Shown here in pieces: positions 1,940 to 63,926 of a stretch of 64,000 bases of DNA. Source of the stretch: Isurus oxyrinchus (taxonomy: Eukaryota); NCBI GenBank assembly GCA_026770705.1, contig JANJGN010000039.1, positions 1,798,001-1,862,000 of the forward strand, in the 5' to 3' direction. Position 1 is the first letter of the stretch; each line of letters starts with the position of its first letter. The notes beneath the pieces were generated by a model that worked only from the letters and a program-made list of their open reading frames with translations, was not told the DNA's origin and did no database searches. The position numbers were made by a program, and so were the translations under genes.

Positions 1940-3775
1940 CCTCAGTGCTGCCACTCAAACAGCGCGGCACGCCCCCTGTACTGACTTACTGACTGTGCGA
2001 TACTTCCTCAAATTAGATACTCCGAGATTGCGGCGCTCCCTCAGCACTGACTATCCAGCAGTGTGGAGCTCCTTCAGTGCTGTTCCTCGGACAGTGTGGG
2101 ACTCCCTCAGTACTGAATCTCTGAAAGTGTAGTATGCCCTGAATACTGACCCTCGGCCAGGGCGACACTCCCTCAGTAATGACCTTCCGCCAGGGAGGAA
2201 ATTCATCAGCACTGAGCCTCTGACAGTGCAGCACGCTCTCACCACCGACTATCTGACAGTGTGGCACTTCCTCAGCACATCCCATCTGACAGTAAAGCAC
2301 ATCGTCAGTGCTGAACCTCTGGCTCTGCGGCACTCCATCTGCACTGGCCCTCTGACAGTGCGCCGCTACCTTGGAACCGACCCACCAACTGTGCGACGCT
2401 CGCTCATTACTGATCCTCTGACAGTGCCTCTCTTCCTCAGTACTGACCCTCCACCACGGTGGTACTCCTGCGGCACCTACCCTGCAAAAGTGCAGTGATC
2501 CTCCAGTACTGTCCCTCCGATAGTTTGTGGCAGCCAAGTGCTGACTCTCTGAAAGTGTGGCACTCCCTCAGACCTGAACCACCGACAAAGCGAAATTTCC
2601 GCATTACTGACCATCAGAATGCAAGGTGTTTCCACAGTGCAGCTCTCCCTCTGAACTTACGCTCCAACAGAGAGGTACTCCCTTAGTAGCGGCTCTCTGA
2701 CAAGGAAACAGACCCTCACTACTGACCAGCCGACAGTGCATAACTCCCTCAGTAATGATCTTCTGACAGTACGGCACTCTCTCAGCACTGACCCTATGAC
2801 AGGGCAGGACACCCTTAGTCCTGAACCTCTAGCTGTCAGTCACCCCCTGAATACTGACACATTGAAGGTGCGGCCGGCCCTCAGTGATAACCCTCTGATA
2901 ATGTGGCACCTCTTCTGTACTGAACCACTGACCCCATGGCACTCCTTCAGTACTGACTCTCCGACACTGCAACAATCCCTCAGAACAGACCTAATGGCAG
3001 TGTGGCACTCCCTTATTACTGACCCTGCAACAGTGCTTTGCTTCTCGAAAGCAGAACCTGCGACATGAGGGGCTTCCTCTGTACTGACCATCCGACAGTG
3101 CAGCTGTCCCTCAGTACAGACCTTCAGAAAGTGCAGCACTACCCAAGCACTGACCATGCGACAAAGGGGTGCATCCAGAGAACTGACCCTTGGACAGTGC
3201 AACATTCCATCAGTTGTGACCCTCCGACAGCCCGGCTCCCCTTCAGGAATGACCCACCGACAGTGCTGCAGCAAACTCTTAGTACTAACCCTCCAATTCT
3301 ATGGCAGAACCTCATTATGCACCCTCCGGCAGTGCAGCACGCCCTCAACACTCACCATCCAATAGTGAGATTCGCCTTCAACAATAATCCTCCAACAATG
3401 CGGCATTCCCACAGTAGTGCCCCTCTGTCAGTGCGGCAAATCTTCAGTACTGACCCTGAGACAGCTCGACGCTCCCTCCATACTGACCGTCTGACAGCGG
3501 GAAACATCCTCAGTACTGACCCCCAGCCAGCTAGGCGCTCCATCTGCACTGTCCATCTGAGAGTGCGGGGCTCCCTCACTGCTGTCCCTCCAACAGTTCC
3601 GTAATCCCTCAGTACTGACCCTCTGACAGTCCAGCGCTGCATCATTGCTGACCCACTGACAGTACGGTGCTTCCTCAGCACTGACCATCCAACAGTGTTG
3701 CGTGACCTCAATACTGTCTCTTCGACAGTGTGGGGTACACGCAGTACTCAAATTCTGAAAGTGCAGTCCTCCCTC
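1940..3775 (+). repeat. 33-bp minisatellite, ~55 copies (CACTCCCTCAGTACTGACCCTCTGACAGTGCGG)
   Basis: Unit starts at 2101, 2134 and 2167 (period 33); explains the 11-aa periodic ORFs (HSLSTDPLTVR). Confidence 0.92.
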
Positions 3776-4800: not shown

Positions 4801-5200
4801 CCTGTCAGAGAGTGCACACTGTTGGAGAGTATATATTTGGGGAGTGCCACACTGTCAGAGTATTATTACTGAAGGAGTGACGTTCTGATTCAGGGTCAGT
4901 ACTGAAAAAAGTGTCACACTGTCGGAAGATTGGGACTGAGAGAGAGCTGCACTGTCAGATGGTCAGTGCTGAGGGATCGCTGCATTGCTGGAGTGTCACT
5001 ACGGAGGGAGCGCTGCACTATCATAATGTCAGTATGGAGGGAGAGCCGCACTGTCGGTGAGTCAGGACGGAGGGAGCACTGCACTATCAGAGGGTAAGTT
5101 CTGAGGGAGTGCCGCACATTTGGAGAGTCAGTTCTGAGGGAATGCCGCACTGTTGGAGGGTAAGTGCTGAGGGTGTGTTGCACTGTCGGAGGGTCAGGAC
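4800..5200 (-). repeat. 33-bp minisatellite in reverse orientation, ~12 copies
   Basis: CAGTACTGAGGGAGTGCCGCACTGTCGGAGGGT units are the reverse complement of the 1940-3775 array. Confidence 0.9.
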
Positions 5201-5837: not shown

Positions 5838-8800
5838 CATAGACTGGGGCTTTTATTATAGTATTAGCTTTCATAGACTGTCAGCATGTTGACAGAGCCA
5901 CGGGCCAATAACTATAATAAAAGAACGCTTAGACTGTTAGCTTGTTGACATCGCCGGGGCACTGTCACTCTAGTATTGGAGAGCATAGACTGTCACATGT
6001 TGACTGGGCTGGGGGCCTGTAACTATAGCAATAGAGTGCATAGACTGTCAGCATGTTGACTGGGCCGTGGGCATGTCACTATAGGAATAGATTGCATACA
6101 GTTTCAGCATGTTGACTTAGCCGGGTCTCTGTTACTATAGTATTAGGTAGCATAGACTGTCAGCATGTTGACATCGCCGGGGCTCTGTCACTAAAGCATT
6201 AGAGAGCATAGACTATCAGCAAGTTGAAATAGCCGGGGCACTGACACTAAGTTAATAGAGAGCATAGACTGCCAGCACATTGACTGGGCTGGCGGCCTGT
6301 AACTATAGCAATAGAGTGCATAGACTGTCAGCATGTTGTCAGAGCCGGGGGTCTATCACTATAGAAGTAGAGTGCATAGATTGTCAGCAGGTCGATAGAG
6401 CCGGGGGTCTGTCCCTAAAGCAAAAAAGTGCATAGACTGTCAGCATTTTGACATAGCCGGGGCTCTGTTACTGTAATAATAGAGAGCATAGACTGGTACC
6501 TTGTTGACAGAGCCAGGGGTCTGTCACTATAGTATTAGAGTGCTTAGACTGCCCGTATAATGACAGAGCCTGGTGTCTGTCACTATCTTATTCGAGTGCC
6601 TATACTGTCCAAATGTTGACAGAGCCATGGGACTGTCAGTATATTAGTAGGGTACATTGACGGTCAGAATTTTGACTGTGCCGGGTGGCTGTCAATATAT
6701 TAATAGAGTCCATAGATGATCAGCTGGTTGAGAATGCCGGAGTCTGTGAATATACTAATAGAGTGCACAGGCCATCACCATGTTGATAAAGCAGGGGGGC
6801 TGTCACTATCGTCATAGAGCAAATAGACTGTCAGCATGTTGAGAAAGCTCGGGGGCGGGGGGTGGCTGTCACTATAGTAACAGAATTCATAGACTGTCAG
6901 TATGTTGACAGAGTCAGGGACCTGTCACTATAGCAACTGATTGCATAGACTGGCATCATGTTGACAGAGCAGGGGGTCCATCACTACAGTAACAGCGTGC
7001 AGACACTGTCAGTATGTTGACAGAGCAGTGTCTGCAGCTCTAGCATTAGAGTGCATTGACTGTTAGCACGTTGACAGAGCCGGGAAGCTGTCACTAATGT
7101 AATAGACGGTATAGACTGTCAGAATGTTGTCAAAGCCGTGGATATGTTACAAGGGTAATAGATTGTATAGACTGTCAGCATGTAGAGAGAGCCGGGCTGC
7201 TTTCACAACAGTAATACAGTGCATTGCTTGTCAGCATGTTGACAGAGCCGGGGGCTGTCAGTATAGTAATTGAGTGCATGCATTGTAATTATGATGACAG
7301 AGCCGGGGGGCTGTCACTATAGTAATAGAGTGCATAGGGTGTCAGCATGTTGAAATAGACCGTGTGCTGTTACTCTAGTATGAGAGAGCGTAGAGTGTCA
7401 GTAATCCAAAAGAGCCCTGAGACTGTCACTATAAGAATAAAATGCAGAGAATGTCAGAATGTTGACAGAGGCGGGGGTCTGTCAGTATCTTATTAGAGTG
7501 CCTATACTGCCCGTATGTTGACAGAGCCATGGGGCTGCCACTATAGTAATAGTGTTCATAGTCTGTCAGTATGTTGGCATAGCCGTGGGCTGTCACTATA
7601 GTAATAGAGGGTATAGACTCTCAGAATGCTGACAAAGCCGGGGGGCTGTCACTATAGTAATATAGTGCATAGAATGCCAGCACGTTGACAGAGCCGTTCG
7701 GCTGCCAATTTATTATTCTAGTGCATAGACTGTCAGCTTGCTTACAGAGCCAGGGTACTTTCACTATTAGTAATACAGTGCATAGACTTTCAGTTATTTG
7801 ACAGAGCCGGGGGGGTGGGGGGTGGGGGGGGGCTGTCTGTATATTATTAGAGTACTTAGACTGTCAGCATGTTGACTGAATCGGGTCCTATCACTATTCT
7901 AATAGGGCGGGGGATTGTCAGTATGTTTGCAAAGCCTAGAGCATTTCATTATAGTATTAGTATGCATAGACTGTCAATTGATTTACAGAGCCGAAGGCCT
8001 GCCACTATATGAATACAGTCGTATTCTGCCTGCTTGTTTACAGAGTAGGCGACCTATGACTAAAGGAACATTATACTATTCAATCAGTATGTTTACAAAA
8101 GGGTCTGTCACTAGTAATAGACTGGAGAGATTCTCGGTATGTTTACAGACCCGGGGACAAGTCAGTGTATGAATAGATTGTTTAGACTGTCAGCATGCTT
8201 GAAGAGCTGGGGCCAGCCAGTACAGTAATAGATAATCTAGACTGTCAGTGTTTTATAGAACCAGGGTCCTGTCACCAAAGAAACAGAGTGGGGAGACTGT
8301 CAGGATATTTACAGAGCCAGGGGCCTGTAACTAGATTTTGGAGCTGTCAGTATATGTACCGTTCGGCAGCCGGTCACAACAGAAATATAGTGGAGATTCT
8401 GTCAGCAACATTACACACACTGTTTTATCACTATAGTATTAGAATGGGGAGACTGTCAGTACGTTTACAGAGGCCGGGACTCTGCCTCTATTGTAATAGC
8501 GTGGAAAATCTGTCAGCATCATTACGGAGCCGGAGGCCTGTAACTCTAATGCTAGACTGGCTAGGCTGTCATATTTGCAGAGCTAGTTGTTCTATCTCTA
8601 TAGTAATAGTTTGGGTAGACTGTCAGGGTGTTGACAGAGCAGGAGGTTCTGTCATTAAATTAATAGAGTGGGTAGACTGTCATTATTATTAAAGAGCCAG
8701 GGGCCTGCCACCATAGCAACTGATCGTGCAGGCTGTCAGCATGTTTACAGAGCGGGGGCTCCAATCAATATTCTAATAGAATGCGTCGACTTCAAGAGTA

Positions 8801-9920
8801 TGATAGAGCTGGGGGCCTGTCACAACAGTCACATAATGGCATAGGCTGTCAGTATCATTACCCGAGTTGCGGGTTTTGTCTTTATAGCAATTGGTTCGGT
8901 AGAATGTAGAATGCTTACAGAGCCCGGGTCCTGTCACTATCGTAACAGTGCAGTATCGTAGTGTGCAGTCTGTCTCTACATATTAAAGGCTGGGCGCCTG
9001 CCACTATTGTAATATCGTGGGGAGACTGTCAATTTGTTAACAGAGCTGGGGGCCTGTTACTGTAGTAATGGAGCGGGGAAAATGGAAGTTTGTTGACATA
9101 GATGCGGCCTGTCACTCGGGTAGGACGAGTAATCCACAGACACAAAATAATTCTCTGGGGACTCGGGTGTGTTGCTAAATTCAGTAAAAATCGTCAATCA
9201 AAAAAATAAGAATAATTAAATTCTCTAATGATGAACATCAAACCAATGCCAAGTGTTGTAAAAACTCATCTGGTTTGCAAATGCCCTTTAAATAAGAGAC
9301 TGCTTTTCTTTCTTGGTCTGACCTACATGTGACTCCAGGCCAACAGAAATGTGGCTGACTCATAAATACCATCTGTACATGGAAATTATGGTTGGGTAAT
9401 AAATGGTGGCCCAGCCAGGAACGCTTACATCCCATGAACGACTTTTTTAAAATGTAGCAGAGGGGAATTGTCAAAATATTCACAGTGCCTGAGACCTCAC
9501 TCTGTATGCATAAATTGTTTAGACTGTCAGTAACGTACAGGGCCAGGGGCCTGTCCATGTAGCAATTAAATGGGCAGACTATCAGTTTTTTACAGAACCA
9601 ATGGCCTTTCAATATTATAATTGAGTGGGTGGACTGTCAGTCCTTTACAGGGCCAAGCGTCTGTCACCGCAGTGATTGCCTGGGTAAGTTGTCGTTGTTT
9701 AACAGGGCAAGTCGTCTGCCCCTATAGTAATTGAGTGCGTAGATTGTCAGTATTTTACAGGGCCAGGGGTCTATCAATATAGGAATTGAGTGGGTAGACT
9801 GTCAGGATTTTAGAGGACAGAGGCCTGTCACTGTAGAAATTGAGTGGGTACACTTTAAGTATTTTACAGGTCCAGATACCTGTCACTGTAGTAACTGAGT
9901 GGATAGGCTGTCATTATTTT
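5838..9920 (+). repeat. ~55-bp tandem array, ~65 copies (TAGACTGTCAGCATGTTGACAGAGCCGGGGGCTGTCACTATAGTAATAGAGTGCA), interrupted by a SINE
   Basis: Unit visible repeatedly; homogeneous at 5840-7900, more diverged at 7900-9110, variant subtype at 9460-9920. Confidence 0.92.
9110..9452 (+). mobile_element. tRNA-derived SINE (shark type) inserted in the 55-bp array
   Basis: GTAATCCA..CTCTGGGGAC head, TGGTCTGACCTACATGTGACTCCAG core, GGGTAATAAATGGTGGCC..CATCCCATGAACGA tail; the same tail occurs on the LINE at 34150 (minus). Confidence 0.75.
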
Positions 9921-11565: not shown

Positions 11566-14233
11566 CCAAACCTTTTATGAAGTGAACAATATGGTCAAGG
11601 CGAGAGGAGCAATTTCACTGGGTAGGACGGGAATGTCAATGCGTTTGAAACTTGGTCTTTTTAAGCAAAATCCTTTTTACTGGATGTGCTAATAACCCAT
11701 CCCGACCGCTGTAATGCTCCCTGACTATTCCCCTCAATCCCTTTTTGTGGTTCCAATCTCTGCTGGATCCTTATTATGTCAACCATGTCTACTACTAAAT
11801 ATATTTTCTCACATGTCATATTGCACTGAAATATATTCCATCTTCAGCACACAGTTCCCGATCACAGTGATTGTTTTCTGCGTAATGAATAGGTAAAAAA
11901 CTGATATTGTGGGAACAAAAACAGGAATATCAAAATGAAGGGACACTCCGGATAAAGATATGCAAACAGAGAGGAAACCAGTGTGAACATGTTTTTTTAA
12001 AGTTGTACAATTAGCATCGGAATAATGAAGGAAAAATTGCAGAAAAGTGTTATTGCACCAACATGCCTTGGGGAAAATGCGCACCTTCAAACAAAATGGA
12101 CACTGGAGGAGGTTAAAGCTTAATAATAGATCCGGAATTGTCTTCTTAAATGCTAAAGGACATGAAGGGCTTAATGGCTAGTGCTGCTTTGGTTTCTGAT
12201 GTCCATGTGCCTGAAATGTACTTCGCTCGGTAAATCACCTGGATGCTGTGTTTTTTTTTTAAATTATTATCCTTATTCCTGGTAGTTTGACTCTGCAACT
12301 GACGCTGCCTCGTCAACATTCAAATGTACCTTAATTATATAAATATGTTTCAAGCAATTGCTCCTAACTACTGACCATATTCTTATCTTCGAGTACATAT
12401 GTGTAGAGGAATTTTGTGTCAGGGCAAGTTTAAATAGCAGGAGAAGGGCAGGTCAAGAGATGACCAAATAATGTAAGGGACTCAGTGGAAAATCTGGGAG
12501 TAGAGTTATGAGCTGAGTAAAGTTTATACGATGAGTACAGCAGGAGATTGCAAGTACATTGATTGATCTGTGAATGGCGGGCAGGGAAAAGGGAAAATGT
12601 GGTGAGGTACTTACTCTGTACTCCAGGACCCAATGCTTAACACGTGGATGAGAAATGGATCAACGCAGCTGCTATGAACTGAGACGGTAAAAAAAACGGA
12701 GTGAGAGGGGTACAGAGAGAGTGTTAGAGAGAGAGGGGGAGAGAGAGAGACTATTTCATTGTTTCCGAGCTTATATTCACCGAATGCATCCTAAATATCT
12801 CGGTTCACACGCTGATTTACCTTTTTGCTAATTTTGTCTTTAAGATATTTTATTGCTTCTTTCATTAATTGCTTCATCATTTAATTTCAAAACTTTTATT
12901 TGTATTCCTTGTTTCGCTTTCTTCCCTAACGCTGTGCTTTATTTTCATCTTCTTCTCCTTTATCCTCATTCTGTTTATTGCATGAGATTCACCTGAATTT
13001 CCATTTCCTGCACCCCTCCCTTTATTCAGGAACGTTGTTTTAAAGCTATCATGTTGGTTGTTTTAAAGGAACATACTATCCAGATGCCTATTCATTACGT
13101 CTAAACATATATTTCCCACCGTTGTTCTATGTTCATATAATGAATAATCGACTCCAGTTTATCTGCAAAAAAGTGCTTTCTCATTGCCACAATATCAGCT
13201 CCTTGCTTTCTAGTTTTATTTGGACATGTTTCTTCCCCTTACGTATTTAACAATGTTTACCAAAACTATCTAATTATATTCCGATTGATGTTGCATCTAT
13301 TTCATGCTAAAAGGATTTAAAATACCTGTCACCGTTCCTTATCAAAGTCTGGATTTATAACCACTGCTTTGGTGGATTTCCCATCTACGGGGTCAGCATT
13401 GCGTTCGGTAATACCCGTTAAATTCCTCACATTAAATTTGCTCAAAGTTTAGTTGGGCTGTAGAGTGTATTTCGAATTATTTAAGCTGCCTCCAACATTG
13501 AAGTAGGAATTAATTTCATGCCAATTATTTATGAGTTGCATTAAAATTTGGAAATGGACGTAATCGCTTCAGTTACAGAGACAGGCTGTGAAAAATAAGG
13601 GTACAAAACACAGATGATGAATAAAGCAAAACACATTGAACGGATCTTCTCATCCGTACATAAATATAGACGCAGCAGGAGCTCATTTTGTCACCTCATC
13701 TTGCATCCCCTTTTAACTATTTGCGTCTAATCATTTACTTCTTTTCAAACGTTGACACTTTCTATGAAGCTTTTCACCCCAATCACATCTAAACATTGGA
13801 TTAAACCATGCCCTGTTTACACTGAATGACCGAGAAATCTGCAGCTTTCTGTGGAAGAAAAATCCAAAGATTCAAAACGCTAAGTGTGACAAAAACATTT
13901 TCGAAATTTATTCATACGTGATTGAACCCTATGCCTTATCTCCAGGGTTTACGTTACTCTAAAACAGGCGAGCAGATTTCTATCCTGGTAAGAGGAAATA
14001 TAACAAAACGAGCTCAGGAACGGAAATGGGTGAGATGCTGAGGCAAATCTGAGCCACAGGTTAAAAGCAAAAGGAATCTTTCCTCGAAAGAAATAACAGA
14101 AGATTGTCTTGCTGACGATGTAGATGCTGAGGTCGACGCATTCAATATATTTAGTATGTTTGCTGTGCTTGTGTGGAGTTCAATGCGACAAAGTTAATCG
14201 TATGTTAGAAGGTAGGCCCGGCGAAACAGGGGT

Positions 14234-17010: not shown

Positions 17011-17384
17011 TCAATTCAATGTGCTTCATAGATCTAATTGCTGTACAGAGGGACAGAGCGTGAACAGCAACAGATGAAAGAAAGAGCACGTGAATTACAC
17101 AAACAGTGAAAAATGGTTTGTGGAGCTAATAACCAGTTAGACTCGCTAAGGAGGAAGCAACGCGCGGGACAAAGTAATCAGAACACTAATGCAGTTAGTC
17201 TGAGGTTATTAATTCACAGCGTGATAGAAAACAAAACTTACCAGGGACACCGACAATAGCAAGGATTGGATACTAAATCATTTGAATCACTTTAACTGCG
17301 AAGGAGATCCGGATTTCTAATGTGAACCATTCATTTTCAGCGAAAATAAGGGCAAACGAAAAGGATAAACCCCTGGTCCTGATT

Positions 17385-17498
17385 GGAACATTCCAAACTG
17401 TTGTACTCAGATTCGGATCCATTGTTGTGAAATTCCAATATATTGTCCTCAGATTCTGAGCCATTGTTGTGACATGAAACATAATTGCCCTCAGATTA
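17385..17498 (+). repeat. 42-bp tandem repeat, ~3 copies (CCATTGTTGTGA...TTGTCCTCAGATT)
   Basis: CCATTGTTGTGA at 17419 and 17461; CTCAGATT three times. Confidence 0.75.
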
Positions 17499-17699
17499 AG
17501 GTTTATCCTCTCTGCCTCTCAAGAGCCGTTGCTCCCTCTTTATGGCGGGGGTGATGCCTTCGCTGACACAGTGGACATAAGAAAGACAAGATTCCCTTTT
17601 TAACAGCTGCAAGGAAACCTCCAGCGGCGCAATTCGGAGCACAGGGACTGAAGCCAATAACAGTCACTGAGCAGAACAGCCCAGTTAACCTCTTCCAGA

Positions 17700-19170
17700 C
17701 GAAGTTTTATACCATAATGCAGTGGAACATTTGCACAGTATGATGGGGTTTGAGAGGATTATTGAGCGCAGGGATGGCGGAAATGATGGGAACTCTGGTC
17801 AGAATCTTTCAATCATCAATGGATATGGGTGAGGTGCCACAACATTTGGAATATACCAATGTCCAAACCCATTAAAACGTAAATAAATGAATGGTCCCAG
17901 CAACTTCAAGATTGTCAGTCTAAAGTCCATCCTGGATATATTACCACACATTGTAAAAAACTGCAATATTCTTCACTTGGAGAAAAAAAAAAGAGGCTTA
18001 ATGAATGACTAAGCAGACGAACATCATGTTTAGCAAAGTTGGTGAAGTTTGGTGAAACAATGGAGAGTTTTAAGGAGAATAATGCGGTTATTATGTATAT
18101 ACATGGTGAAGCGGCATGCGATAATGTGCCTTTTAATGGAGCTGTGAGAATAACCGAAATCAGGGCATTAAAGGGGCATTGGCATTTTTGGTATGTCATT
18201 GGCTGAAGTACAAAATACCGAGGGGACTAATTTAATGTTCTTGTTAAGGCTGGAGTGGAGTATACATTGATGTTCTTCAGGGGGACATTTCCAACACATT
18301 AAACTGCCGTTAATTTCACCTTTTGTAGAATACAGAAAAGCAGAAAAGTAAACACCAAGAAGCTCAGTTAGAAACACAAAGCATGAGTATAACGGCAGGT
18401 TGGTGTATTGGAGAGACACACAGCTAATGCAATTTAATGCAGAGCAGTGCAAAGCATTGCATTGAATGGAATTTGAGGAGCGTCAATGTAAACTGAAAGC
18501 AACGATTTGAAATGAGGAACAAGTCAAGACTGGGGCTGACGTACACACGGTGTTGAAGCTGCTGGAATACTTTGATTTGAATTGGATAATGCACACATGT
18601 GTTATTGCCTTATCATTCCATGGAAATACTACAGAACAATGGGAGTGAGTGCTGAAATTCAATAAAGCAAAATTGATGCATTCTGTCCATATCCAATTTA
18701 TATCTATCTATATATATATATTAGAAACTATATGAGGAGGGTGCAGAGCGGGTTATTGCTTTGGTACCAGAGATGGTAGATCAATCAGTGAAATCGAGAG
18801 GTTAGAGGAGCTGGGCTTGCTCATTCCTTTACTGCAGAAGTTAAAGGCGAAATGTTATCGCGGTGATGAATATTCCATGGTCTTTTCAAACGGGAAGTAA
18901 ACATTTTCCCGCTCTAACTAGGATAGGTAATTTAATTGCCAAGAGTATCAGAGAGTCCATGAAAAGAAAATGATTGTAGGGAGTTGTTACTATCTGGAAT
19001 GCATTGCCTGCAGATACGTTGAAAGCAGTTTCAAGGGGGAACTGAATAGCTACTTGCAGCCGCTATGGGAAAAGAACAGACACGGGAACCAAAATCGGAT
19101 ATTTCTTTGGAAGCCAGCACATGCAAGATCCAAGCAATGGATTGATTCTGCACTCTATAATCCATCGACG
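17700..19170 (+). mobile_element. Degraded CR1 LINE ORF2 (RT domain to 3' end)
   Basis: FQSSMDMGEVP..NV..PSNFKIVSL resembles the CR1 RT start; downstream ATGCAATTTAATGCAGAG..TGCAAAG and GAGAGGTTAGAGGAGCTGGGCTTG. Confidence 0.75.
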
Positions 19171-32196: not shown

Positions 32197-32830
32197 ATGG
32201 CATCCCAATATATAGTTTGGATCAAAATTTCACTTGCATCGTTATATCCACGTTCAGCTGATTCGGGCATTGAGCACAACGCCCTCACTCAGCACTTCCA
32301 GTGGATTGTATACAGACATTGTTTACTTCATTTTTGCAATTGCCCCGGGGCATTGTTGATAAAGGTATTTCGATACATTTTTGTGACTGAATGTTTTGCC
32401 CAGGTCATTTATCAGTTTAGATATTTAATGCAACAAAGAGCTGGGATTTTAGCCCAGTTCACGGCACACTGTTCCCTTGTCTCCATATCTGTTGAATCAC
32501 TTTTGGGTATTTTCTTCCTGCTTTTGTCTGCTCCAGGTAAATTTCGGGAGCTTTTGTTCCTGAAGCGATGAAAGAGTTCAACCTCAAAATGTGTTTTTTG
32601 CTACTTGGAGTGAATGGCAGACACCAAATTCCTTGTCGTTATCACAGATCCAATATTAGGAGGGAGTTGTCAGGAGGAACTCCCAGTTTTATTTATGTAC
32701 AATAGTCGGATGTTTAAGTGCACTGTGGTTCCTAAATTTTCAACAAAAATCACCTCGTTCTGCTTCACTGTCACCTTTATCTATGGTCCTTTAGAGGATA
32801 TTTCTTGCAAGAAGCACATGCATTTATTCA
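32197..32830 (+). pseudogene. GPR139/142-like GPCR pseudogene 1 (putative exon 1 ~32197-32275; exon 2 from 32537, TM1-TM3, truncated)
   Basis: After CCAG| it reads KFRELLFLKR*KSSTSKCVFCYLE*MADTKFLVVITDPIL..FCFTVTF..ISC, colinear with NLVTIVILRRRRCGLSNCVTRYLEAMAVADLLVIILDLIL..WFTVTFTLDRFVAICC of the intact gene; two in-frame TGA; LYPRSADSGI resembles YFPILALVGV. Confidence 0.7.
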
Positions 32831-39970: not shown

Positions 39971-40236
39971 ATAGCTGTTCAGAATTCATTGAGGGTGCTG
40001 CTCCCTAAGGATGAATAATCAATTAACGCTTAACCATCCTGCGCACTTTTACTAGGTTCAATGCATATATAAAACACGTTGCTATTGGAAATCATGCTAA
40101 ACATGCTTGCATTAAACAATTTAAAAGATGCATGAAGAAACTAAATTTGCAATGAATACCGTTTGCTGCAAACAAAAGAAAAATATGTTCATCTTTGTTG
40201 TTTATCTCATGTTATGTGTCTCTCTCTCTCTTACAG

Positions 40237-40545
40237 TGAATGGCGTTGCAATTGTGAATCTTTTGCGAGGAAAGCATGGTCTCTACAAATGCATTACATA
40301 CTATATGATGGCAATGGCAGCGGCTGGTCTCCTTATTGATTGTGCTGTTATCATAATGACCTGTTTAATTCTGGTCATTGAGGCCTGTGTGCCAGCTAGC
40401 TGCGACAATGATTTATGAGTCACATCAGCCTCTTTCTGGTTAACATTGATATCGCCCTTATGGTCACTGCGTTCTGTAATACACTCTGTCTGTGCTTCGT
40501 GGTAAGTTCTCTAATATAACTGTTTTATGTGTGGCTCTTTTTTCC
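40237..40545 (+). pseudogene. GPR139/142-like GPCR pseudogene 2 (exon 2 fragment, TM1 to ~TM4, with deletions)
   Basis: Polypyrimidine tract plus TTACAG| then (V)NGVAIVNLLRGKHGLYKCITYYMMAMAAAGLL; frameshifted PVCQLAATMIY..FWLT; same phase-1 acceptor as the intact gene. Confidence 0.85.
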
Positions 40546-43500: not shown

Positions 43501-43889
43501 ACCTGGTCAATCATTCCGATTGGATGAGGTGGCTTTCAACAATGGGGTGCGTGAATTAATAGAGTGGTTGTGGAGATGGTGGTTTGGGGTAATGTTTGTG
43601 AGTCCCTGGGTGAAGCTCCGGCTTGACTGTGCTACCTGTAAGACAGCAGGTGGAGCTCCCGGATTGGCTGAGTCTCTGAAAAATATGTAGAACCGATACT
43701 TCACGACAGTCTTTAACTGCTGTCTGATCATGGACTGACTCACCCCATAAATTAACATCTTTGTGCAGTAACTTTAATTCATCAGCATAAACTTGGCACT
43801 TTAACATATATAGTAAGGAAATCTATAGTATACTAATTCACTAATTTTAACATATACGAATGTATAAGATTCCCCGACCAGGAATGTGA

Positions 43890-44305
43890 TTTTGTGCTGG
43901 TTAGAATACATTCATACAGGGTGTTGATAATTGAGTGGATTTAGTGCTGGGTAACATATATTCAGCAGAGTGTTTGATAAGTGAGTGGGCTTACTGCTGG
44001 TTAAAATCAATTGAGCAGAGTATCGATAAGTGAATGGGATTTAGAACTGGTTAAAATACATTCAACAGAGTGTTGATAAGTGAATGGGATTTAGAGCTGT
44101 TTAAAATACATTCAACAGAGTGTTGATAAGTGAGTAATTTAGTGCTGCTGAAAATACATTCAGCAGATCATTGAGAAGTGAATGAGATTTAGTGCTGTTT
44201 AAAATACATTCAGCAGAGTGTTGATAAGTGTGTACTGGTTAAAATACATTCAGCAGATTGGTGCTAAGTGAATGGGACTTTCACTGCTTAAAATACATTC
44301 AGCTG
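43890..44305 (+). repeat. 50-bp minisatellite, ~8 copies (TTAGTGCTGGTTAAAATACATTCAGCAGAGTGTTGATAAGTGAATGGGAT)
   Basis: 50-bp period visible at 44041-44090 and 44091 onward. Confidence 0.9.
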
Positions 44306-45849: not shown

Positions 45850-46320
45850 ACTGACGGATTTCTGCACTGATGGACTATCAGTACTGAATTGTACTGCAAT
45901 ATCTGTGTTTCAGTACTGAGGAGTTGCTGCACCGCCAGAGAGTCAGTACTGAGAGAGCAGGACACCGTCAGAAGCATCAATGCTGGAGCAGAGATGAATT
46001 ACAGGATGGTCGGTACAGCTCAAGTGCTGCATTGTCGAAAGATCAGTACTGGAAGTGTGCTGTACGTTGAAGACAGGGATAGAGTGAGACAAATGCAGAG
46101 GGAGAGAGAATGAAAGACAGAGATTTTGAGAAAAAAACAAAAACAAAAATAGAGGTAACAGGAAGGCGAGATGAAGAGAGAGGGTGAGAGAAAGAGGTGG
46201 ACAGCACTGATGGAGCGCTGCACTATCGGTGGGTCAGTACGAAATCATGCTTTTCTGTCAAATTTCAAAACCGAGGGGCTGCTGCACTCTTGTAAGGGCA
46301 GCGCTGAGGGATCATTTCTG
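45850..46320 (-). repeat. Degenerate copies of the 33-bp unit flanking a purine-rich arm
   Basis: CAGTACTGAGGAGTTGCTGCAC, CAGTACTGAGAGAGCAG, GCACTGATGGAGCGCTGCACTATCGG. Confidence 0.65.
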
Positions 46321-47847: not shown

Positions 47848-48725
47848 TTAAGTGAAAGGATATTTCAACATTTTCCACAACTGCTCCCTGAACCTAGTCT
47901 GTGTCACAGCATAAATCCAAGTGTTTGTGCAGCAACTAAGGAGCTGCAGCATGAAGCCCAATTCCAGAACAAAAAAATCTAGATACAGGGAATTATAGCC
48001 TAAATCAGACATCCGGAACCATATGGAAAAAAACATTAGCATTCCCCATAAAACGATGAAATTGGTTGAAATATAAAAGAGTAACATGATCGATTTCTTT
48101 CGATTCTCCACCGCTGGGTCTTTGGGGCTTTGCCCACTCCTGTGAGCCCGGAGTCTCATGCGGGCCCTGCTGGTCACTAAAATATACTCTATGGTCAAAA
48201 TATTGATGAGCAGGATCAGCACAAATGGGACACACGGTGTTAGAATGTGATGGGTGAACTCGATTGTTACCCAGGCAGGATTGAACAGAACCTCCTTTCT
48301 GTAACCACAAAACGAGGGGAAGTTTACCATCCAGTACTGACCTGTGAACAAAAAATACCAGAAAATGTTCTTTGAACAGCTCAGTGCAATGACGGTTCCA
48401 AGAATCACAGCTGCCGTTTTCTCACTGCAATATTTAGTTTTTAGCTTCGGGCAACAAATGGCCACAAATCGATCCAAGGTAAAAGTGACAGTGAACCACA
48501 CAGAACAGTCAGTGGCTGCATAAAGCAGGACGGCATGGATATTACACACTGGGATTGATCGCAGGAAAGAAAAATACTTATCAAACACAATTGGAATATG
48601 CCTCAGTATTAGGTCCAGGATAATAACCAGTAGATCAGCTACTGCCATGGCCTCCAGGTAACGGGTAACACAATTGGAGAGGCCACACCTTCGGCGCCTG
48701 AGTATCACAATCGTGACCAGGTTCA
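47848..48725 (-). CDS. GPR139/GPR142-like class A GPCR, coding exon 2 (TM1 C-half to TM7 and helix 8)
   Basis: Open frame with AMAVADLL (TM2), LDRFVAICC (TM3), PFVLILLIN (TM5), FIVLW (TM6), CCTNTWIYAVTQTRFREQL (TM7/H8); acceptor TTTCTTTGCAG| at 48726. Confidence 0.93.
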
Positions 48726-49849
48726 CTGCAAAGAAAGGTAATAAACAATAAAACGCTATATCACTCTGGTACCAAAGTTGCCAGTTTAATTGAGATGCAA
48801 TGGAGATGTGTTACAGCATCCTCCAGTGTAATGAAATGAATGGTCCAGAAACATGGTATAAAAAATGTCTGTGATATCGTGGAAGGCAGGATACATTGAA
48901 AGGTTAAAATAAGGAGGTGGGAATAGAGTGGAGATGGGAGTTTGCGGGAGAGTGGGAATATTTGCGAGACAAAAAAGGAAAGGAGTAATCGGGGGATAAT
49001 CGGTGCACGTAGCGGTGATGACAGCGCATGGAGTGGCGGGCGAGCGTGCCCATTACGGGTGGTACCCATGGGTGATGGTGGAACTCATGAGTGAGAGGGG
49101 AGACGTGTTTGAGTGAGAGCAGCCAGAGGTGATGATTGCGTTCAGGCAAATAAGTGAAATGGGGTAATTTATTATTTTGCTCAACATATCTCCTGACAGG
49201 AAGGCTCTGCAGTTATGTGATGGAATGTTTCCTCTGTCCAAGGATGTTATTTTAGGAATTTCGAAGAGAGCTTTCTTGCGAATTGTCATTTCAAATTAAA
49301 TGCTAAATGATCGTTTCTTACAAAATACGAAATGCAAGTAATAATGATCATGTACACGACAAACACTCATACACCCTCACACAAAAATAATAATTTGCAG
49401 AAATGCTGCACATACTTAAATTATTACGAGTGTAGAACAGGAACAGCTCATTCCTTAATATGCTTAATGTGCTGGTTGTAAACATTGCAGGACTGAGGTC
49501 TTCATTCCTCGGTTATTGAAGACAAATTGAGTTTTTAAATATCTGGCTTTTAGTCTACAATGTGGTGGAGCCTCTGTGTTGACGATATGTACCAACATGT
49601 ACAGCCTATCAGCCTCTTTTAATGCTTGAAATCTTCAAAAATGTCTCTTAAAAATGTTATTTTGGAGTGTTTCTATTATGAGCAAAAGTCTCCCTGTCCT
49701 TCGATCTTGGTGTTGGATTTCCATTCTCCAAACACTAAAATTTATGTTGTGTACAACTTCAGAAAATGAAGTTATGTGCAAACTGGATTCTTAGTGGCAC
49801 ATCTAGACAAGCTGTCAAAGGCGAAAGCATCCAGAATATATCTTACCAC

Positions 49850-50780
49850 AATCTCCTCTTCTCCTGAAGTGTACTCCGGATTCCTGGTGACAATGCCTGT
49901 GTCCTTATGTTGGTGATTATATGAAGGATGCAGCAGAACACTATGAACATGACCACCTGCTCCAGGGTGTAACGGAGGGTTCAATCCCAATGGTTCAGGA
50001 ATGAGAAGCGTTTCTTTCCCACAATGGCGGGCTGATCCACAATGGTCTGTGCGACTCCATTGCTCTTGGTATTGAGGTGTTCTGTTCACCTGCTTGGTTG
50101 GAGGTAGGGAATGGCGAAGTTGCATTCTTTTGATCCATGTTCCTAAGGGGCAGCCTTCATCTACGAAAAGCCACTGTGTGCTTCCCTATGGAGCTACGGA
50201 GATGCTGGAAACGTCCGACTGCTTCATAATGAAGTGTTGTGGCTCTCGCCAGGAGCTTGGATGTTCACCAACATGATGTACTGTCCATAAATATACATCG
50301 AATGGACGTGAATTCAGTCAGAATTCGTTCAGAGCCTTTAACTCTGTCCATTCTAATGGGGACACGGCAGAATTACGTACGCCATCGTGAATCCCTCTGC
50401 CCTGGGAGGCCATGGGACCGACCAATCTGCTTCTCCCTGTTAAGGGAGCAAAAGTACAAACGTGGCACCCAACAGAGATGTGCTCTGTCAGCTAATGAAT
50501 ACATAGTTAGACAAAATACTGGGAGATAATTAATATAACACCAGCTATTCTCCTGCGTGGACTGTTCCGAATCCATAGCAGTTTCAATGATCATATGAAC
50601 ACCGTGTCCAAACACAGCAGCTCCCGCACCCTGGTGTGCGGCCCCAGGTCCTGTTGAAGGAGGTGACACGGGTCTGTAACACCTTATTGTTTTGTCAGAG
50701 TTATATCCGTCTATGAATATGTTTTAGGTATAGGTTTGTAAAGTGTTCCTGACAATCCAGGGGTGCTTAGAGCAGTGCAA
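49850..50780 (-). mobile_element. PIF/Harbinger transposase pseudogene in the GPCR intron (element may extend to a TIR-like end at ~51468)
   Basis: PGESHN..IMKQS, WLFVDEGCPLGTW, KKRFSFLNH and LRYTLEQVVMFIVFCCILH resemble HARBI1-type PGSxHD, WLLGDxGYPL, KxRFRCLD and LQYxP..IVxCCxLHN. Confidence 0.8.
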
Positions 50781-51006
50781 CACCTCTCCCCCCCAAAAAC
50801 AAATGTTAACAGGCGGTCCCCTCCCTATTCACTCCGCTCATTTCGCTCGTCATGGTACAGGTCCAGGTGCACTGTAACTACATCCCCAAAACCTCTTCCA
50901 AGGTTGGGCCTATAAATCCTCTATCCTCTCTCAATTTACGCAGCCCTTCACAGCACAGCACAATGAAGACCATCTAAAGCACCTCAATGGACTTTGAAAT
51001 AACAGT

Positions 51007-51145
51007 GATAAAAACAAAACAACAGCAGATGCTGGAAATCCAAAAAGTTCTGTCGAAGGGTCATGAGGACTCGAAATGTCAACTCTTTTCTTCTCCGCCG
51101 ATGCTGCCAGACCTGCTGAGTTTTTCCAGGTAATTCTGTTTTTGT
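51007..51145 (+). mobile_element. Short Penelope-like insertion with inverted tail piece, hammerhead motif and 14-bp flanking duplication
   Basis: TTTGAAATAACAGT at 50993-51006 and 51146-51159; AGTT-CTGTCGA-A-GGGTC-ATGAG-GACTC-GAAAT-GTC-AACT at 51046-51084. Confidence 0.75.
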
Positions 51146-51940
51146 TTTGAAATAACAGTAGTCAGTCAAAGTCCGTTCAGCTGACAGTCAGATGTCTGGC
51201 CCGTTTCAGTTAAACTGGAAAGGGTGCCTCGTGTTTTTAAACAAATATTTAGCTGAGAGTGATTAACACAGGCTTTCGGTGGGCGGGTACAGCCAGTGTT
51301 TCAAAGGCATGCATCAAACATGATGAAAACCCCCGCACAACACGGGACACCATGTGTGAGTTTCTGGACATGGGATTGATTGGAGAAGCGAGATTAAATT
51401 GTGATCAAATCACACGATTGGGAATTTTGAAATTGACGGACTGAAAGACTTGGCAGCAATCTTGGCCCTTGAGCACAGGGATAATGGTGGAATGAGAATT
51501 GGCATGGACAAGTTTACAAAGATTAGAGTTTTGTGTGGGGCATGTTTTAAGAACGTTTGTAGCAGCAATTGTCTGGCCAGATTAACATTTTAATAGCCGA
51601 GTCTGGCTTGGACAAATGCACAGCTGAGGGATCATTCGGGTGATGTGTTGATGCAGCGAGTATAGTGGGTGAGGATAAAGAGCTGGTAGAAGACAGGCTT
51701 AAGGATAGAAAAGGTGAGGGCTCACAAATCAGCTCAGGGCAAAATGGAGCATGGAGGTCGAAGACACTATGGTTCAGGCTTGGATAGTAGTGCGGTAGGC
51801 GGGTGGAGCGACTGGATATGGAACGATCATTAAAACGGGAACAGTAGCAAATGACTTCCATCTTCCTGAAATGTAAGAGACAATAACAGTAATACAGTCA
51901 ATCTGGTTTAAGGAACAGATTGTTGCATATAGGTTCTTAC

Positions 51941-52115
51941 CGCTGACACCAACAAGAGCCAGGATGGGGAAGTAACCAACTTGGATTAACGAAATTACTC
52001 CCTCGATCCTTTCAGCTAATGATATCCGATCTTGAGAAAGGTAGTAAAGCCCGGAGGATAAACTCCTCTCCATTTTTGTGAAATTCCAAGATTTTGTTCT
52101 AAGTTTCTGATTCAT
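51941..52115 (-). CDS. GPR139/GPR142-like GPCR, coding exon 1 (N-terminus and TM1 N-half)
   Basis: MNQKLRTKSWNFTKMERS..IQVGYFPILALVGVS then G|GTAAG donor at 51940; 175 nt, phase 1, joins exon 2 in frame (G+TG = Val) for 350 aa total; alternative ATG at 52073. Confidence 0.88.
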
Positions 52116-52244
52116 TGTTGTCACGTTCCAATCTATTATTCTCAGGTTCTGATGTTTTCTCTCCCCCTCTCAGGAGTCGTTGATCCTTGCGACATCTGAA
52201 TGCGACTGTCCCCCTGACATTAGGGGACAGCACTTTGAAATGAG

Positions 52245-52330
52245 CCCCGTATAAATAGCACTGTGAAACCCTCCAGTGACACAATTAGGATCCAGGGAGA
52301 TTGAAGTTAATTACAGGGACTGAACAAATC
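52245..52330 (-). promoter_or_regulatory. Putative GPCR proximal promoter: TATA-like, homeodomain and O/E-like motifs
   Basis: Minus strand TATTTATA (52250-52257), CTAATTG (52282-52288), TCCCTGGA (52291-52298), TAATTA (52308-52313), starting ~135 bp upstream of the ATG. Confidence 0.55.
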
Positions 52331-53429
52331 GGTTCAGTTAACGCCTTGCATTCCAACAATTTTTGTCTCACAACATAGTAGAAGATTTACTTGGCGTGGA
52401 TCGGATGTATGTGGGTCGCTAAGGGATGGAAGGCTGTGAATAGAGGTTTGACTGACCATGACATGTAAAGGCACCTGGGAGTGATATCCAAGGACAGGAA
52501 GGTTTTATGTGTTCCACGCTGTTTATAAAAGCAGAGTTCCAAAGCAGAATGGAACCTGGATTGATGACCTATTTTGAAAAATCATTTATTTTGGGAGCGT
52601 GGGTTCCTTATTGAAAGAGGTTCACAGGAGCCTGATCTGACTTTGCAAGATTCACAAAAAAAATGTAATTAATCATGATCATATTACACCAGGCAACCAA
52701 ACGCTTGGTAAGTTTTCATTACAGAGACCACGAAATAAGTGGCAGAATCTCACGCTGCCCCTTTCATCCTACTAATGCCCTTATTAACCCAGGACCCCAG
52801 CGGCCAGGCACCATTATTTTTGGACCAAGGATAACGTTTGTTCAGTGGTAAAGAAGTAGATCTTCCAGTGGTCTCCTGAACATTCACTAGAAGCAATTGC
52901 ACAATTGGTATATCCCTTTAGATATCCAGAACACTCAATCTAAATTCACCTCTCCTTTAGTGTTAGAGGATTATCCACGAGTTCCTTAAGAATCTGGCAT
53001 CATGCCCAGTTGCAGAGAAACTGAGGCCTTTTCTTCAAGTCTTCACTCATTGGCAATCTGATACAACTGAAACTACAAGGTCATAGGCTCCGTGTCTTTA
53101 TGTATCTGTGCGGCTCCTCCTGATCACAAGTTGCGAGTCAACAACACAGTTTTATTTCCTACTTCTTGTTTTAGATGTGACTTCACTAAATCACCAAAAC
53201 CTTTAGTAGTCAATCTCTTCATTTCAAGATTCGTAATGCAGTCATTAAAATGTATACATTTAAACAGTGCCCAAGGCTGGCCGGCTGAATGTCACAAAAA
53301 TCCAAACTGAAACCAAGCCCAGGCTTCACATTACAAATACAATTGTAGCTTGCCTAAAATAATATCGAGTTCCCATCATTTACCCCGCAAAAGGATAAGA
53401 AATGAAAAGGTAGCTTTCAGAGGCATTTT

Positions 53430-60780: not shown

Positions 60781-61151
60781 GAAAGGGTAGTTTTGCCATG
60801 TTGTTGAATTTAATTGGAATCAGTGTGACGAATGAGAATGCTGGACAGTAGGAAGTGCACTTTGGAGGGGACACAGCCAGGGCAGGGGTTTTCTCTCCAA
60901 CCAGGGTGAGGGATTTCTGTGATGCCAAAGCTCCCATGAGAGGGAAGAGATGTCTTATTACTGATATTTCTTCCTTTCAATCATTGTGAGGCTGTTGCAC
61001 GATGAACAGTTGAACTGGCAAAAGAGCGAGGACGGCTGACTGGATGTGTGCCCCCACTCCACACCCTCCATCTCTGCAGCTCCAGCCGCTGTGGTTCTGT
61101 AATTAACTGAGAACCTGCTGAAACGCTCAGTGATTTGTTTATTTTTATTGT

Positions 61152-62044
61152 TTAATATGTTGAAATAATTGGGGTGAAGAGATGTTGCAGCATATTGTTA
61201 AATGCTCCGTGAACTTAGCCTGCTCTCTCTGTAAATCCCAGTGTTTGTGCAACAACCCAGGAGCTGCAGCATGAAGCCTAATTCCTGAACAAAAGCATAG
61301 AGATACATAGACTTATAGCACAAATTCCACATCAGTCTCCAAATAGAAGAAACAATTGACATTGAACATAACAGGAAGAAATTGGCTGAGATAACAGACA
61401 GAACATTCATAGATTTCCTTCTACCCACCATCTATGGATCGCCGGGATTATCCCACTTCTGTGAGCCTGGAATCCCCTGTGTTCTCTGCTTTTCATTAAA
61501 ATCTGCTTTACCATGAAAACATTGAGCAGCAGAATCAGGTTAAATGGAAAGCACGATGTTAGAATATGTTGGAAGCACTCAACTGCTACCCAGAACAGAG
61601 ATTCCTGAATATCCCATGTGAAATCCCTGAAACCAGGGGGCGTTCATCAGCCGATATGCAACTGTTATCATAATATATGAGAAAATGTTATTTGAACAGC
61701 TCAGCACAATCAATGTTCCCAGAAGCACAGTGGCTATTTTCTCACTGCAATATTCAGTTTTCAGCTTCAGGGAACAACGGGCCACAAATCCCTCAAAGGT
61801 GAAAGTGACGGTGAAACAGACAGGACAGTCTGTGGCTGCATAAAGCAAGATGGTGTGGATATTACACACGTGGATGGAGTTCCAGAAGTAAAACTGTTCC
61901 TTAAACAAGAATGGAATGTGCCTTATTATCACATCAGGAATAACGACCATTCGTCAGCCACAGCCATGGCCACCAGGTACTGAGTTACACATTTGGACAG
62001 ACCACATCTGTTGCTCCTGAGGATCACAATCATGACAAAGTTCG
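61152..62044 (-). pseudogene. GPR139/142-like GPCR pseudogene 3 (complete exon 2, disrupted)
   Basis: GGCAG| then (A)NFVMIVILRSNRCGLSKCVTQYLVAMAVAD; VCNIHTILLYAATDC; ELGFMLQLLGCCTNTGIY; at least 4 frameshifts, a TAG after DP (~61432) and DRF changed to EGF; exon 1 not in the window. Confidence 0.92.
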
Positions 62045-63397
62045 CTGCCTGGACGGGAGTTAAAGAATTTGATCATACATCAGGCTGAGTCAAAGCAAAT
62101 CGTTTAATTGCGGAGTTTTTGTATGTGTTATTGCAGCCTGTAATATATTGTGAGAAATGAACCTGAAATTACAAATGGGAAGGTTTGCGATCGAGTTGTA
62201 GGAAGCCGAGAAAAACAACAAAAGCTGAAGTGGTGGAGGAAGTGGATGCAGGATTATCGCGGGCGCTAGAGGTGATGAGGGTACAAAGGATGAATGTTGG
62301 GCCCAGGGGACCACAGGGGGATTTAGTTGGAGATCGGAAAAGTCAGGAGTGATTGAAAGGTAACTTTGAAACCCAATGCTAACGGAGGAGCCAGGCAATA
62401 AGAGGGCGGCCCAGGGGTGATGGGAGAACTAAGGAACACGTATGATTGGGAAGAACCTGAGGTGATGGTTGTGTTAAGGACAGGGGTGTGATCTGGATGT
62501 TTTCCCCATTTCTCTGCTAACTCCAACAGGATGCATTTCTGGGAAGGAGTGTTTAAACATTACAGTGCAGCAGTTTTTAGGAAAAGTGACTAAGTAGTTT
62601 TTCTTGTAAAGTTAAAAAATTAAAGGAAATGATTAAAATGCATTTCTTACGAAGTGTATCGAGATGTCATTCTTCAAAGACACACACATGCAAACACAAA
62701 CACACAAACACACACGTTAGAACTCTAGGGAACTAGTATACGCTTCGATTATTAGAAGCTTGGAACAGAAACAGGCCCCTTCATTATATTCCTTAAGATG
62801 TACTTGATTTTCTCCTTTTTGAAGACAAATGGACGTTGCAAAATTATGGTTATTAGTCTAAATTGTAGTTAGGAAGAAATATACCAAAAGGTAGAACTTG
62901 TTAGCCTCTTTTTATCACCTGCGCTGATTCCAAACATTGTGCTTCTTTTTCTTGGATGGGCATATCTTCCCTCAAATATTTCTTCCTTTCTGAGAATAAC
63001 TGACTTCCATATATTCAAAAATGATGTCAGCTATTCAATGTTTCCAGAAGATATCTGTTGCACAACGTCAGTTGTAAAGATTATTTTTACTAACATAAGC
63101 ATACTTCCTGACCCGTGACCATCGAGTTCGATTTTATGTCTCCATACATTAACATTCCCATTACAAGCAAGATGCAAACCCCTTCTCTATCCATCTTCCA
63201 GAGAGATGTAATGTGACCATGACAGGGGAGAAAGGAGAGTGGGTGGGGGAAGGGATGATGAGTGAGAGAGGAGTGCAAAGGGAAAGCTGGTTTCACATTT
63301 GACGAAGCACGTCCCGGCACACAGAAACCTGACTCTTGTAGTGTGTGCACTCTTCCAGAGGAGAGACAAGAAATTGGACATCTCGCCTAGCGTTGGA

Positions 63398-63663: not shown

Positions 63664-63926
63664 NNNNNNNNNNNNNNNNNNNNNNNNNNNNNNNNNNNNN
63701 NNNNNNNNNNNNNNNNNNNNNNNNNNNNNNNNNNNNNNNNNNNNNNNNNNNNNNNNNNNNNNNNNNNNNNNNNNNNNNNNNNNNNNNNNNNNNNNNNNNN
63801 NNNNNNNNNNNNNNNNNNNNNNNNNNNNNNNNNNNNNNNNNNNNNNNNNNNNNNNNNNNNNNNNNNNNNNNNNNNNNNNNNNNNNNNNNNNNNNNNNNNN
63901 NNNNNNNNNNNNNNNNNNNNNNNNNN
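63664..63926. other. Assembly gap (263 N)
   Basis: Run of N. Confidence 1.

Follow-up and report, generated by a model that had tools for sequence, protein, structure and literature searches.

The window, a 64,000-nucleotide stretch of contig JANJGN010000039.1 of Isurus oxyrinchus, contains an intact two-exon class A GPCR gene on the minus strand. The coding part of exon 1 (51941..52115, minus strand; 58 codons plus 1 base) ends at a GT donor at 51940 and is followed by a phase-1 GT-AG intron of 3215 bp (48726..51940, minus strand) and by exon 2 (47848..48725, minus strand), which covers TM1 to TM7 of a rhodopsin-type GPCR (Pfam 7tm_1; E = 2.6e-12). The two exons join into an open frame of 350 amino acids. 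Exon 1 encodes an N-terminal repeat with an N-glycosylation sequon, a variable ectodomain, and the start of TM1, and it aligns with the N termini of shark homologues. The N-terminal unit of 11 to 14 amino acids (MxQNLRTIDWNVTT), which contains the sequon, is present in about 1 to 5 copies among the homologues and lies here at 52073-52151 on the minus strand; a further copy, lacking an ATG, was seen in the 5' UTR of the intact gene.

The predicted protein had 1405 homologues at E ≤ 0.001, and nearly all of the top matches were at 64 to 73% identity. The best 120 of these comprised 3 unnamed proteins and 117 shark models annotated as "probable" or "putative" GPR139, and they included 53 horn shark and 27 sevengill clusters (90% identity). 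The family is characterized by a two-exon structure split in TM1 and by the motifs DRFxAIC (100/109 sequences) and NTxIY (103/109). Among 10 of 150 representatives whose origin was traced, more distant members belonged to skate, coelacanth, salamanders, and a teleost. In a tree of 34 rows, the gene was nested with catshark and carpet-shark members in a clade with support of 98/94, and true GPR139 fell outside the sample. The protein hallmarks of olfactory receptors (ORs) are MAYDRYVAIC, PMY, KAxxTC, and PxxNPxxY; each of these motifs was found in 0 of the 109 family sequences. Judged from its protein sequence, the receptor is a non-OR member of the shark "probable GPR139"-like family. A non-OR GPCR family at this locus had been suggested in an earlier note on this DNA, and the block described below does lie directly upstream of a non-OR GPCR from a large family.

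The only PDB match was human GPR139 (E = 4e-7, 33 bits), so the name GPR139 is best regarded as a loose, automatic label. Pocket residues of GPR139 were compared as given in PMC5430874; under our mapping, 2 of the 4 residues are kept in the shark family, an aromatic residue at 3x33 (Y or F in 107/108) and W6x48 (108/108), whereas H5x43 and N7x38 are replaced. Vertebrate GPR139 and GPR142, which are class A receptors activated by Trp and Phe, are present in one or two copies, whereas the shark family has many and differs further in its hypervariable extracellular face and its repeated, glycosylated N terminus. Variability was scored over 108 of the 120 homologues (12 were left out by length), with the topology taken from the GPR139 alignment. 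All 23 columns with at least 3 bits fell in the N terminus or in ECL1 to ECL3, the mean variability was 1.76 bits in the ECLs compared to 0.74 bits in intracellular positions (p = 1.5e-6), and TM3 was nearly invariant.

Expanded sensory or immune families of class A receptors include the TAAR, V1R/ORA, T2R, MRGPR, and FPR families. The shark family resembles them in its birth-and-death expansion, its pseudogenes, and its variability on the ligand side. It differs from them in ancestry and in that variation is found in the loops and the N terminus, with a nearly invariant TM pocket. This pattern of variation suggests that the ligands may be peptide-sized or surface-binding.

Other copies of the family in the window are decayed. 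A paralogue of the putative promoter block described below, together with a pseudogene exon 1 in which TAG replaces the first Tyr codon of YYP, lies at 17238..17700 on the minus strand, and no exon 2 was found downstream of it within the window. Another paralogue is represented by a broken exon 2 (61042..62159, minus strand) with stops and frameshifts. On the side where exon 1 of that pseudogene would be expected there is an assembly gap (63664-63926; 263 N) within CA-repeat DNA. Decayed fragments of the same GPCR family lie in both orientations, at 32383-32814 (plus strand), 40056-40406 (plus strand), and 43636-43920 (minus strand).

A conserved block upstream of the start codon

Four motifs had been reported within about 65 bp upstream of the gene. 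All four were found on the minus (gene) strand over a span of 64 bp: TAATTA (52308..52313), the O/E-like TCCCTGGA (52298-52291), CTAATTG (52282..52288), and the TATA-like TATTTATA (52250..52257). The ATG at 52115 is 142 to 198 bp downstream of these motifs, and the region that holds them has a GC content of 0.44 together with the TATA-like box. The O/E consensus can be written YYYCARRRR, and a motif cluster was defined as a stretch of at most 90 bp with two or more TAATT(A/G) sites, a TATA-like box, and an O/E-like site that departs from that consensus at no more than one position. When both strands were scanned, this rule was satisfied once in the window, and 3000 dinucleotide shuffles of each of two promoter regions gave 0 clusters. 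However, this significance is overstated and the clustering is weak evidence, because the rule was written after the motifs had been seen. TAATTA alone is common, with 32 sites in the window. Conservation among paralogues is stronger evidence against chance than the clustering of motifs.

The paralogues point to a conserved non-coding block at 52253..52345 on the minus strand, a putative proximal promoter cassette that is common to many of them. No coding signal was found in the block and its translations were present in 0 of 283 stored proteins; a search of the protein database with one block frame, which is weak evidence, gave nothing at E ≤ 10. An Rfam search with the block gave 0 matches. 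Within the window, the block has a 72% match to 17697-17615, ahead of the pseudogene exon 1, and the distances between block elements and the ATG are 141, 172, and 225 bp there compared to 142, 173, and 227 bp in the intact gene. Bin by bin, the two copies agree at 18 to 22 of 30 positions in the block versus 11 to 22 of 30 in the flanks (gapped alignment), a modest excess. No third copy was found in the window below E = 0.09 with an nhmmer profile of the two copies. A weak look-alike at 11754-11781 (E = 0.04, or E = 1.8 by profile) was rejected on the grounds that no exon 1 lies behind it.

Coverage among further paralogues was evaluated with contigs from 4 DNA runs of a related shark (80% likeness; one species label and at most 4 samples). 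Contig depth peaked over about 90 bp, at 52253-52345, in all 4 runs, and the depth of the bin at 52284-52314 was 4 to 26 times that of the flanking bins and 6 to 13 times that of a bin in the coding part of exon 1; contigs cannot be equated with loci, nor depth with copy number, and alleles raise the counts. Each run had 21 to 25 contigs at 52295, 1 or 2 at 52194 in the 5' UTR, and 2 to 7 at 51999 in the coding region, and the 21 to 25 contigs carried one common difference at 52295. Some contigs matched both the block and the start-codon region, and the loose ends continued into an AT-rich box that is homologous and has GGG after it, which indicates that the contigs represent paralogous upstream regions and not a free-standing repeat. 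These results show that the block has been copied with the gene, has kept its distance from the ATG, and is conserved more widely among paralogues than either the 5' UTR or the variable coding portion of exon 1.

Base-level comparison of the motifs was made over the 2 full copies, the loose ends, and 40 of the 190 related-shark differences. The most distal element, GTTAACTG (52335..52342, minus strand), which we take to be Myb-like, was absent from the motif list of the earlier note; it is identical in the pseudogene, at 225 bp from the ATG compared to 227 bp in the intact gene, and it is also present in one related-shark loose end. The next element, TTTGTTCAGT (52319..52328, minus strand), reads TGTTTGTT in paralogue loose ends, a form that is presumably forkhead-like. 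The homeodomain-type site TAATTA is poorly conserved, with TTATTG at its position in the pseudogene and TAATAT in one related-shark loose end. The other homeodomain-type site, CTAATTG, lies where coverage of the block is highest; its counterpart in the pseudogene is CGAATTG (172 versus 173 bp from the ATG), in which the AATTG core is kept, and none of the 40 listed differences affected this site. CTGGAGG (52270..52276, minus strand) is identical in the pseudogene. GTTAACTG, the paralogue form TGTTTGTT, and CTGGAGG are kept as well as, or better than, the motifs first noted.

The O/E-like 10-mer TCTCCCTGGA (52291..52300, minus strand) has another form in most paralogues. G52295 was replaced by T in 22, 22, 21, and 25 contigs of the 4 runs, at 82 to 94% of the depth; most paralogues therefore read TCTCCATGGA, which contains the palindrome TCCATGGA, and TCCCTGGA is the minority form. 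The majority form also creates, through CCATGG, an upstream ATG within the block (52293-52295), at which 0 stored proteins start. The TATA-like box has 1 mismatch to TATAWAWR. Paralogues have TATTAATA, TGTTAATA, or TGTTAAAA there, followed by GGG, and in the pseudogene the box is 141 bp from the ATG (142 bp in the intact gene) but TATTTATA itself is not kept; the place of the box is conserved and its sequence varies. MEF2-type sites have the consensus YTAWWWWTAR, to which the TATA-like box (52249-52258) has 1 mismatch and some paralogue loose ends have a full match. PMC5318403 mentions MEF2A sites in connection with OR promoters. The expectation of positional conservation among paralogues was borne out for the block as a whole; of the single motifs, TAATTA and TATTTATA are not retained by the pseudogene, and TCCCTGGA is a minority variant.

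Candidate function of the block

The best explanation for these findings is that 52253-52345 probably serves as the proximal promoter cassette for a GPR139-related family of class A GPCRs that has expanded in tandem in sharks. The block lies 140 to 230 bp ahead of the start codon, and the intervening sequence has no obvious splice acceptor. The standard spacing between a TATA box and the start of transcription is about 30 bp. The TATA-like box would accordingly set the start about 30 bp downstream, at about 52225, and the predicted start zone at 52220..52228 (minus strand) is based on this spacing only. Upstream of the box, GTTAACTG, TGTTTGTT, TCTCCATGGA, CTAATTG, and CTGGAGG would form a fixed row of factor sites. 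The most likely single activator would be a homeodomain protein bound to CTAATTG, together with factors at neighboring sites of fixed spacing. Such a row may activate all members of the family in a single, restricted type of cell with access to many extracellular ligands; candidates are olfactory neurons, other chemosensory or somatosensory cells, and cells of the gut or the immune system.

Several features were seen around the predicted start. Upstream ATGs at 52220 and 52195 (minus strand) open uORFs of 16 and 17 codons in the predicted 5' UTR, and the ATG at 52195 is missing from all related-shark contigs. An inverted repeat, CTGTCCCC...GGGGACAG (52206-52230), was seen by eye at the predicted start; the pseudogene does not retain it.

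In one version of the promoter reading, the cassette would be an Lhx2/Ebf (HD plus O/E) promoter through which the family is expressed in olfactory sensory neurons; this special case seems unlikely to us. In the best-covered core, TAATTG does adjoin the Ebf-like 10-mer, and TCTCCATGGA is one base off the Ebf portion of Sfaktiria, a mouse composite tested by EMSA (PMC5608512, supplementary file 7). In such composites the HD and Ebf sites are 1 bp apart. The plus strand from 52282 fits the composite pattern, as published in PMC11643329, with 1 mismatch, and 11 of the 17 bases of the Sfaktiria 17-mer agree in register at 52282. However, both matches are at the level of chance: the pattern is matched 12 to 20 times per kb, and the Sfaktiria level is reached by 97 of 127,968 17-mers. 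Furthermore, the pseudogene copy has at least 7 mismatches to the composite, and Lhx2/Ebf composites are described as depleted from OR promoters.

The O/E-like match itself did not hold up. The published O/E consensus is YCCCNNGGGR (PMC8213819), and the shark site has 2 mismatches among the 8 defined positions in the minority and majority forms alike, a level reached by 778 sites in the window (64 + 714 at ≤2 mismatches). In addition, the TCCCTGGA of the earlier note is not the form that most paralogues read. The closest known systems are mouse OR promoters and Greek Island enhancers (Monahan 2017, PMC5608512). Common to these and the shark block are TAATT(A/G) homeodomain sites in the vicinity of an Ebf-like 10-mer and a location ahead of GPCR genes whose family is large, clustered, and rich in pseudogenes, and one register in the shark block has the composite spacing. 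The shark block differs in its O/E match, whose 2 mismatches are no better than chance, and in that neither TAATGA nor an extended HD site is present among the four noted motifs. OR promoters are AT-rich and usually without a TATA box (PMC5318403), in contrast to a block with 44% GC, a TATA-like box, and a fixed, alignable cassette with further elements in front of a non-OR receptor. Homeodomain TAATNN sites near the start are present as TAATTA and CTAATTG, with the pseudogene keeping the AATTG core only. The proposed likeness to OR promoters is supported by the homeodomain sites; on the O/E and TATA features the claim of an OR code fails.

The family itself resembles a chemoreceptor repertoire, with at least 53 horn-shark clusters among the best 120 homologues, pseudogenes, and extracellular hypervariability, and an olfactory role of the promoter is possible. 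PMC10116579 and PMC11979771 describe nearly all catshark olfactory neurons as TRPC2/Go microvillous cells and V2Rs as the receptor family that is mainly expressed, which argues against such a role. In PMC10116579, OR-expressing ciliated neurons are described as absent from the shark nose. However, these accounts cover only the four known receptor families, and a fifth is therefore compatible with them.

Promoters of many GPCR genes lie before a non-coding first exon. If that were the arrangement here, the block could be the 3' end of an intron, with CTAAT as the branch point (A at 52285) and a pyrimidine run with an AAG or TAG acceptor before GGG, and the promoter would be located ahead of an unseen first exon. 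Paralogue loose ends do have a pyrimidine run and then AG at the position of the TATA-like box, the pseudogene reads TTTCCTTGCAG there, and the distance from branch point to AG would be about 36 nt, or 24 nt if the intact copy were spliced at its AG at 52262-52261. However, the intact copy reads TAC, not AG, at the acceptor position, the AG at 52262-52261 is missing in all related-shark contigs (C52261G, all depth), and another AG occurs 13 to 14 nt past the branch A. Splice signals would also leave unexplained why 90 bp are conserved up to GTTAACTG. We consider an intron end quite improbable.

It is equally improbable that the block is an inherited or homogenized flank (after a recent duplication, by gene conversion, or as part of a repeat) with meaningless motifs: the motifs are short and common in the window, some homology between the copies extends across the whole upstream region, and contig depth does not measure copy number, but coverage drops 4- to 26-fold on either side of the ~90-bp peak in 4/4 runs, the spacing to the ATG is within 1 to 2 bp in a diverged pseudogene, and 64 kb contain zero free copies of the block.

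The receptor family and its published context

If the block is the family-wide promoter, then a compact common promoter would provide a direct handle on the site of expression of a large and little-studied family of shark receptors. Thirteen runs guessed to be RNA (tissues unspecified) contained next to no exon-2 words. Exon-2 words were found in 1 coral metatranscriptome, at a share of 0.06. Ten metagenome-contig matches to the ends of exon 1 were judged on their translation to be unrelated chance matches and were rejected.

No description of a GPR139-like expansion in sharks was found in literature listings that cover few subscription papers. In term searches, PMC12208981, PMC12294341, a bioRxiv catshark text, and the supplement of PMC13188829 had no mention of a shark expansion. 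Extra GPR139/142 subtypes are described for coelacanth, gar, and fishes in PMC6504862, in which the word "shark" appears 0 times. According to the whale shark paper (PMC8455134), cartilaginous fishes are poor in GPCRs, and the shark nose is run by about 34 V2Rs according to PMC10116579 and PMC11979771. This published picture does not include a family that has at least 53 distinct members in one shark and varies on its outer face only.

The receptor family may be a more interesting lead than the olfactory code. If its expression is olfactory, the account of shark smell would change; if it is not, a sensory or immune repertoire is still in need of explanation. As a tentative suggestion, which we regard as doubtful, sharks could have an overlooked set of GPR139-derived receptors, numbering dozens to hundreds, each with sparse expression in chemosensory neurons, whether olfactory (microvillous) or other, from one conserved promoter cassette with an Lhx2/Ebf-like core. 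This would be a fifth vertebrate chemoreceptor family that had adopted the olfactory gene-choice code independently, and it could explain how sharks have keen olfaction with only about 50 known receptors.

Elsewhere in the window, open reading frames inside tandem arrays were rejected as repeat artefacts. These diverged arrays lie at 5850-9900; 1970-3700, 4850-5200, and 45850-46300; 43889-44280; and 96-500, with units of about 56, 33, 50, and 70 bp.
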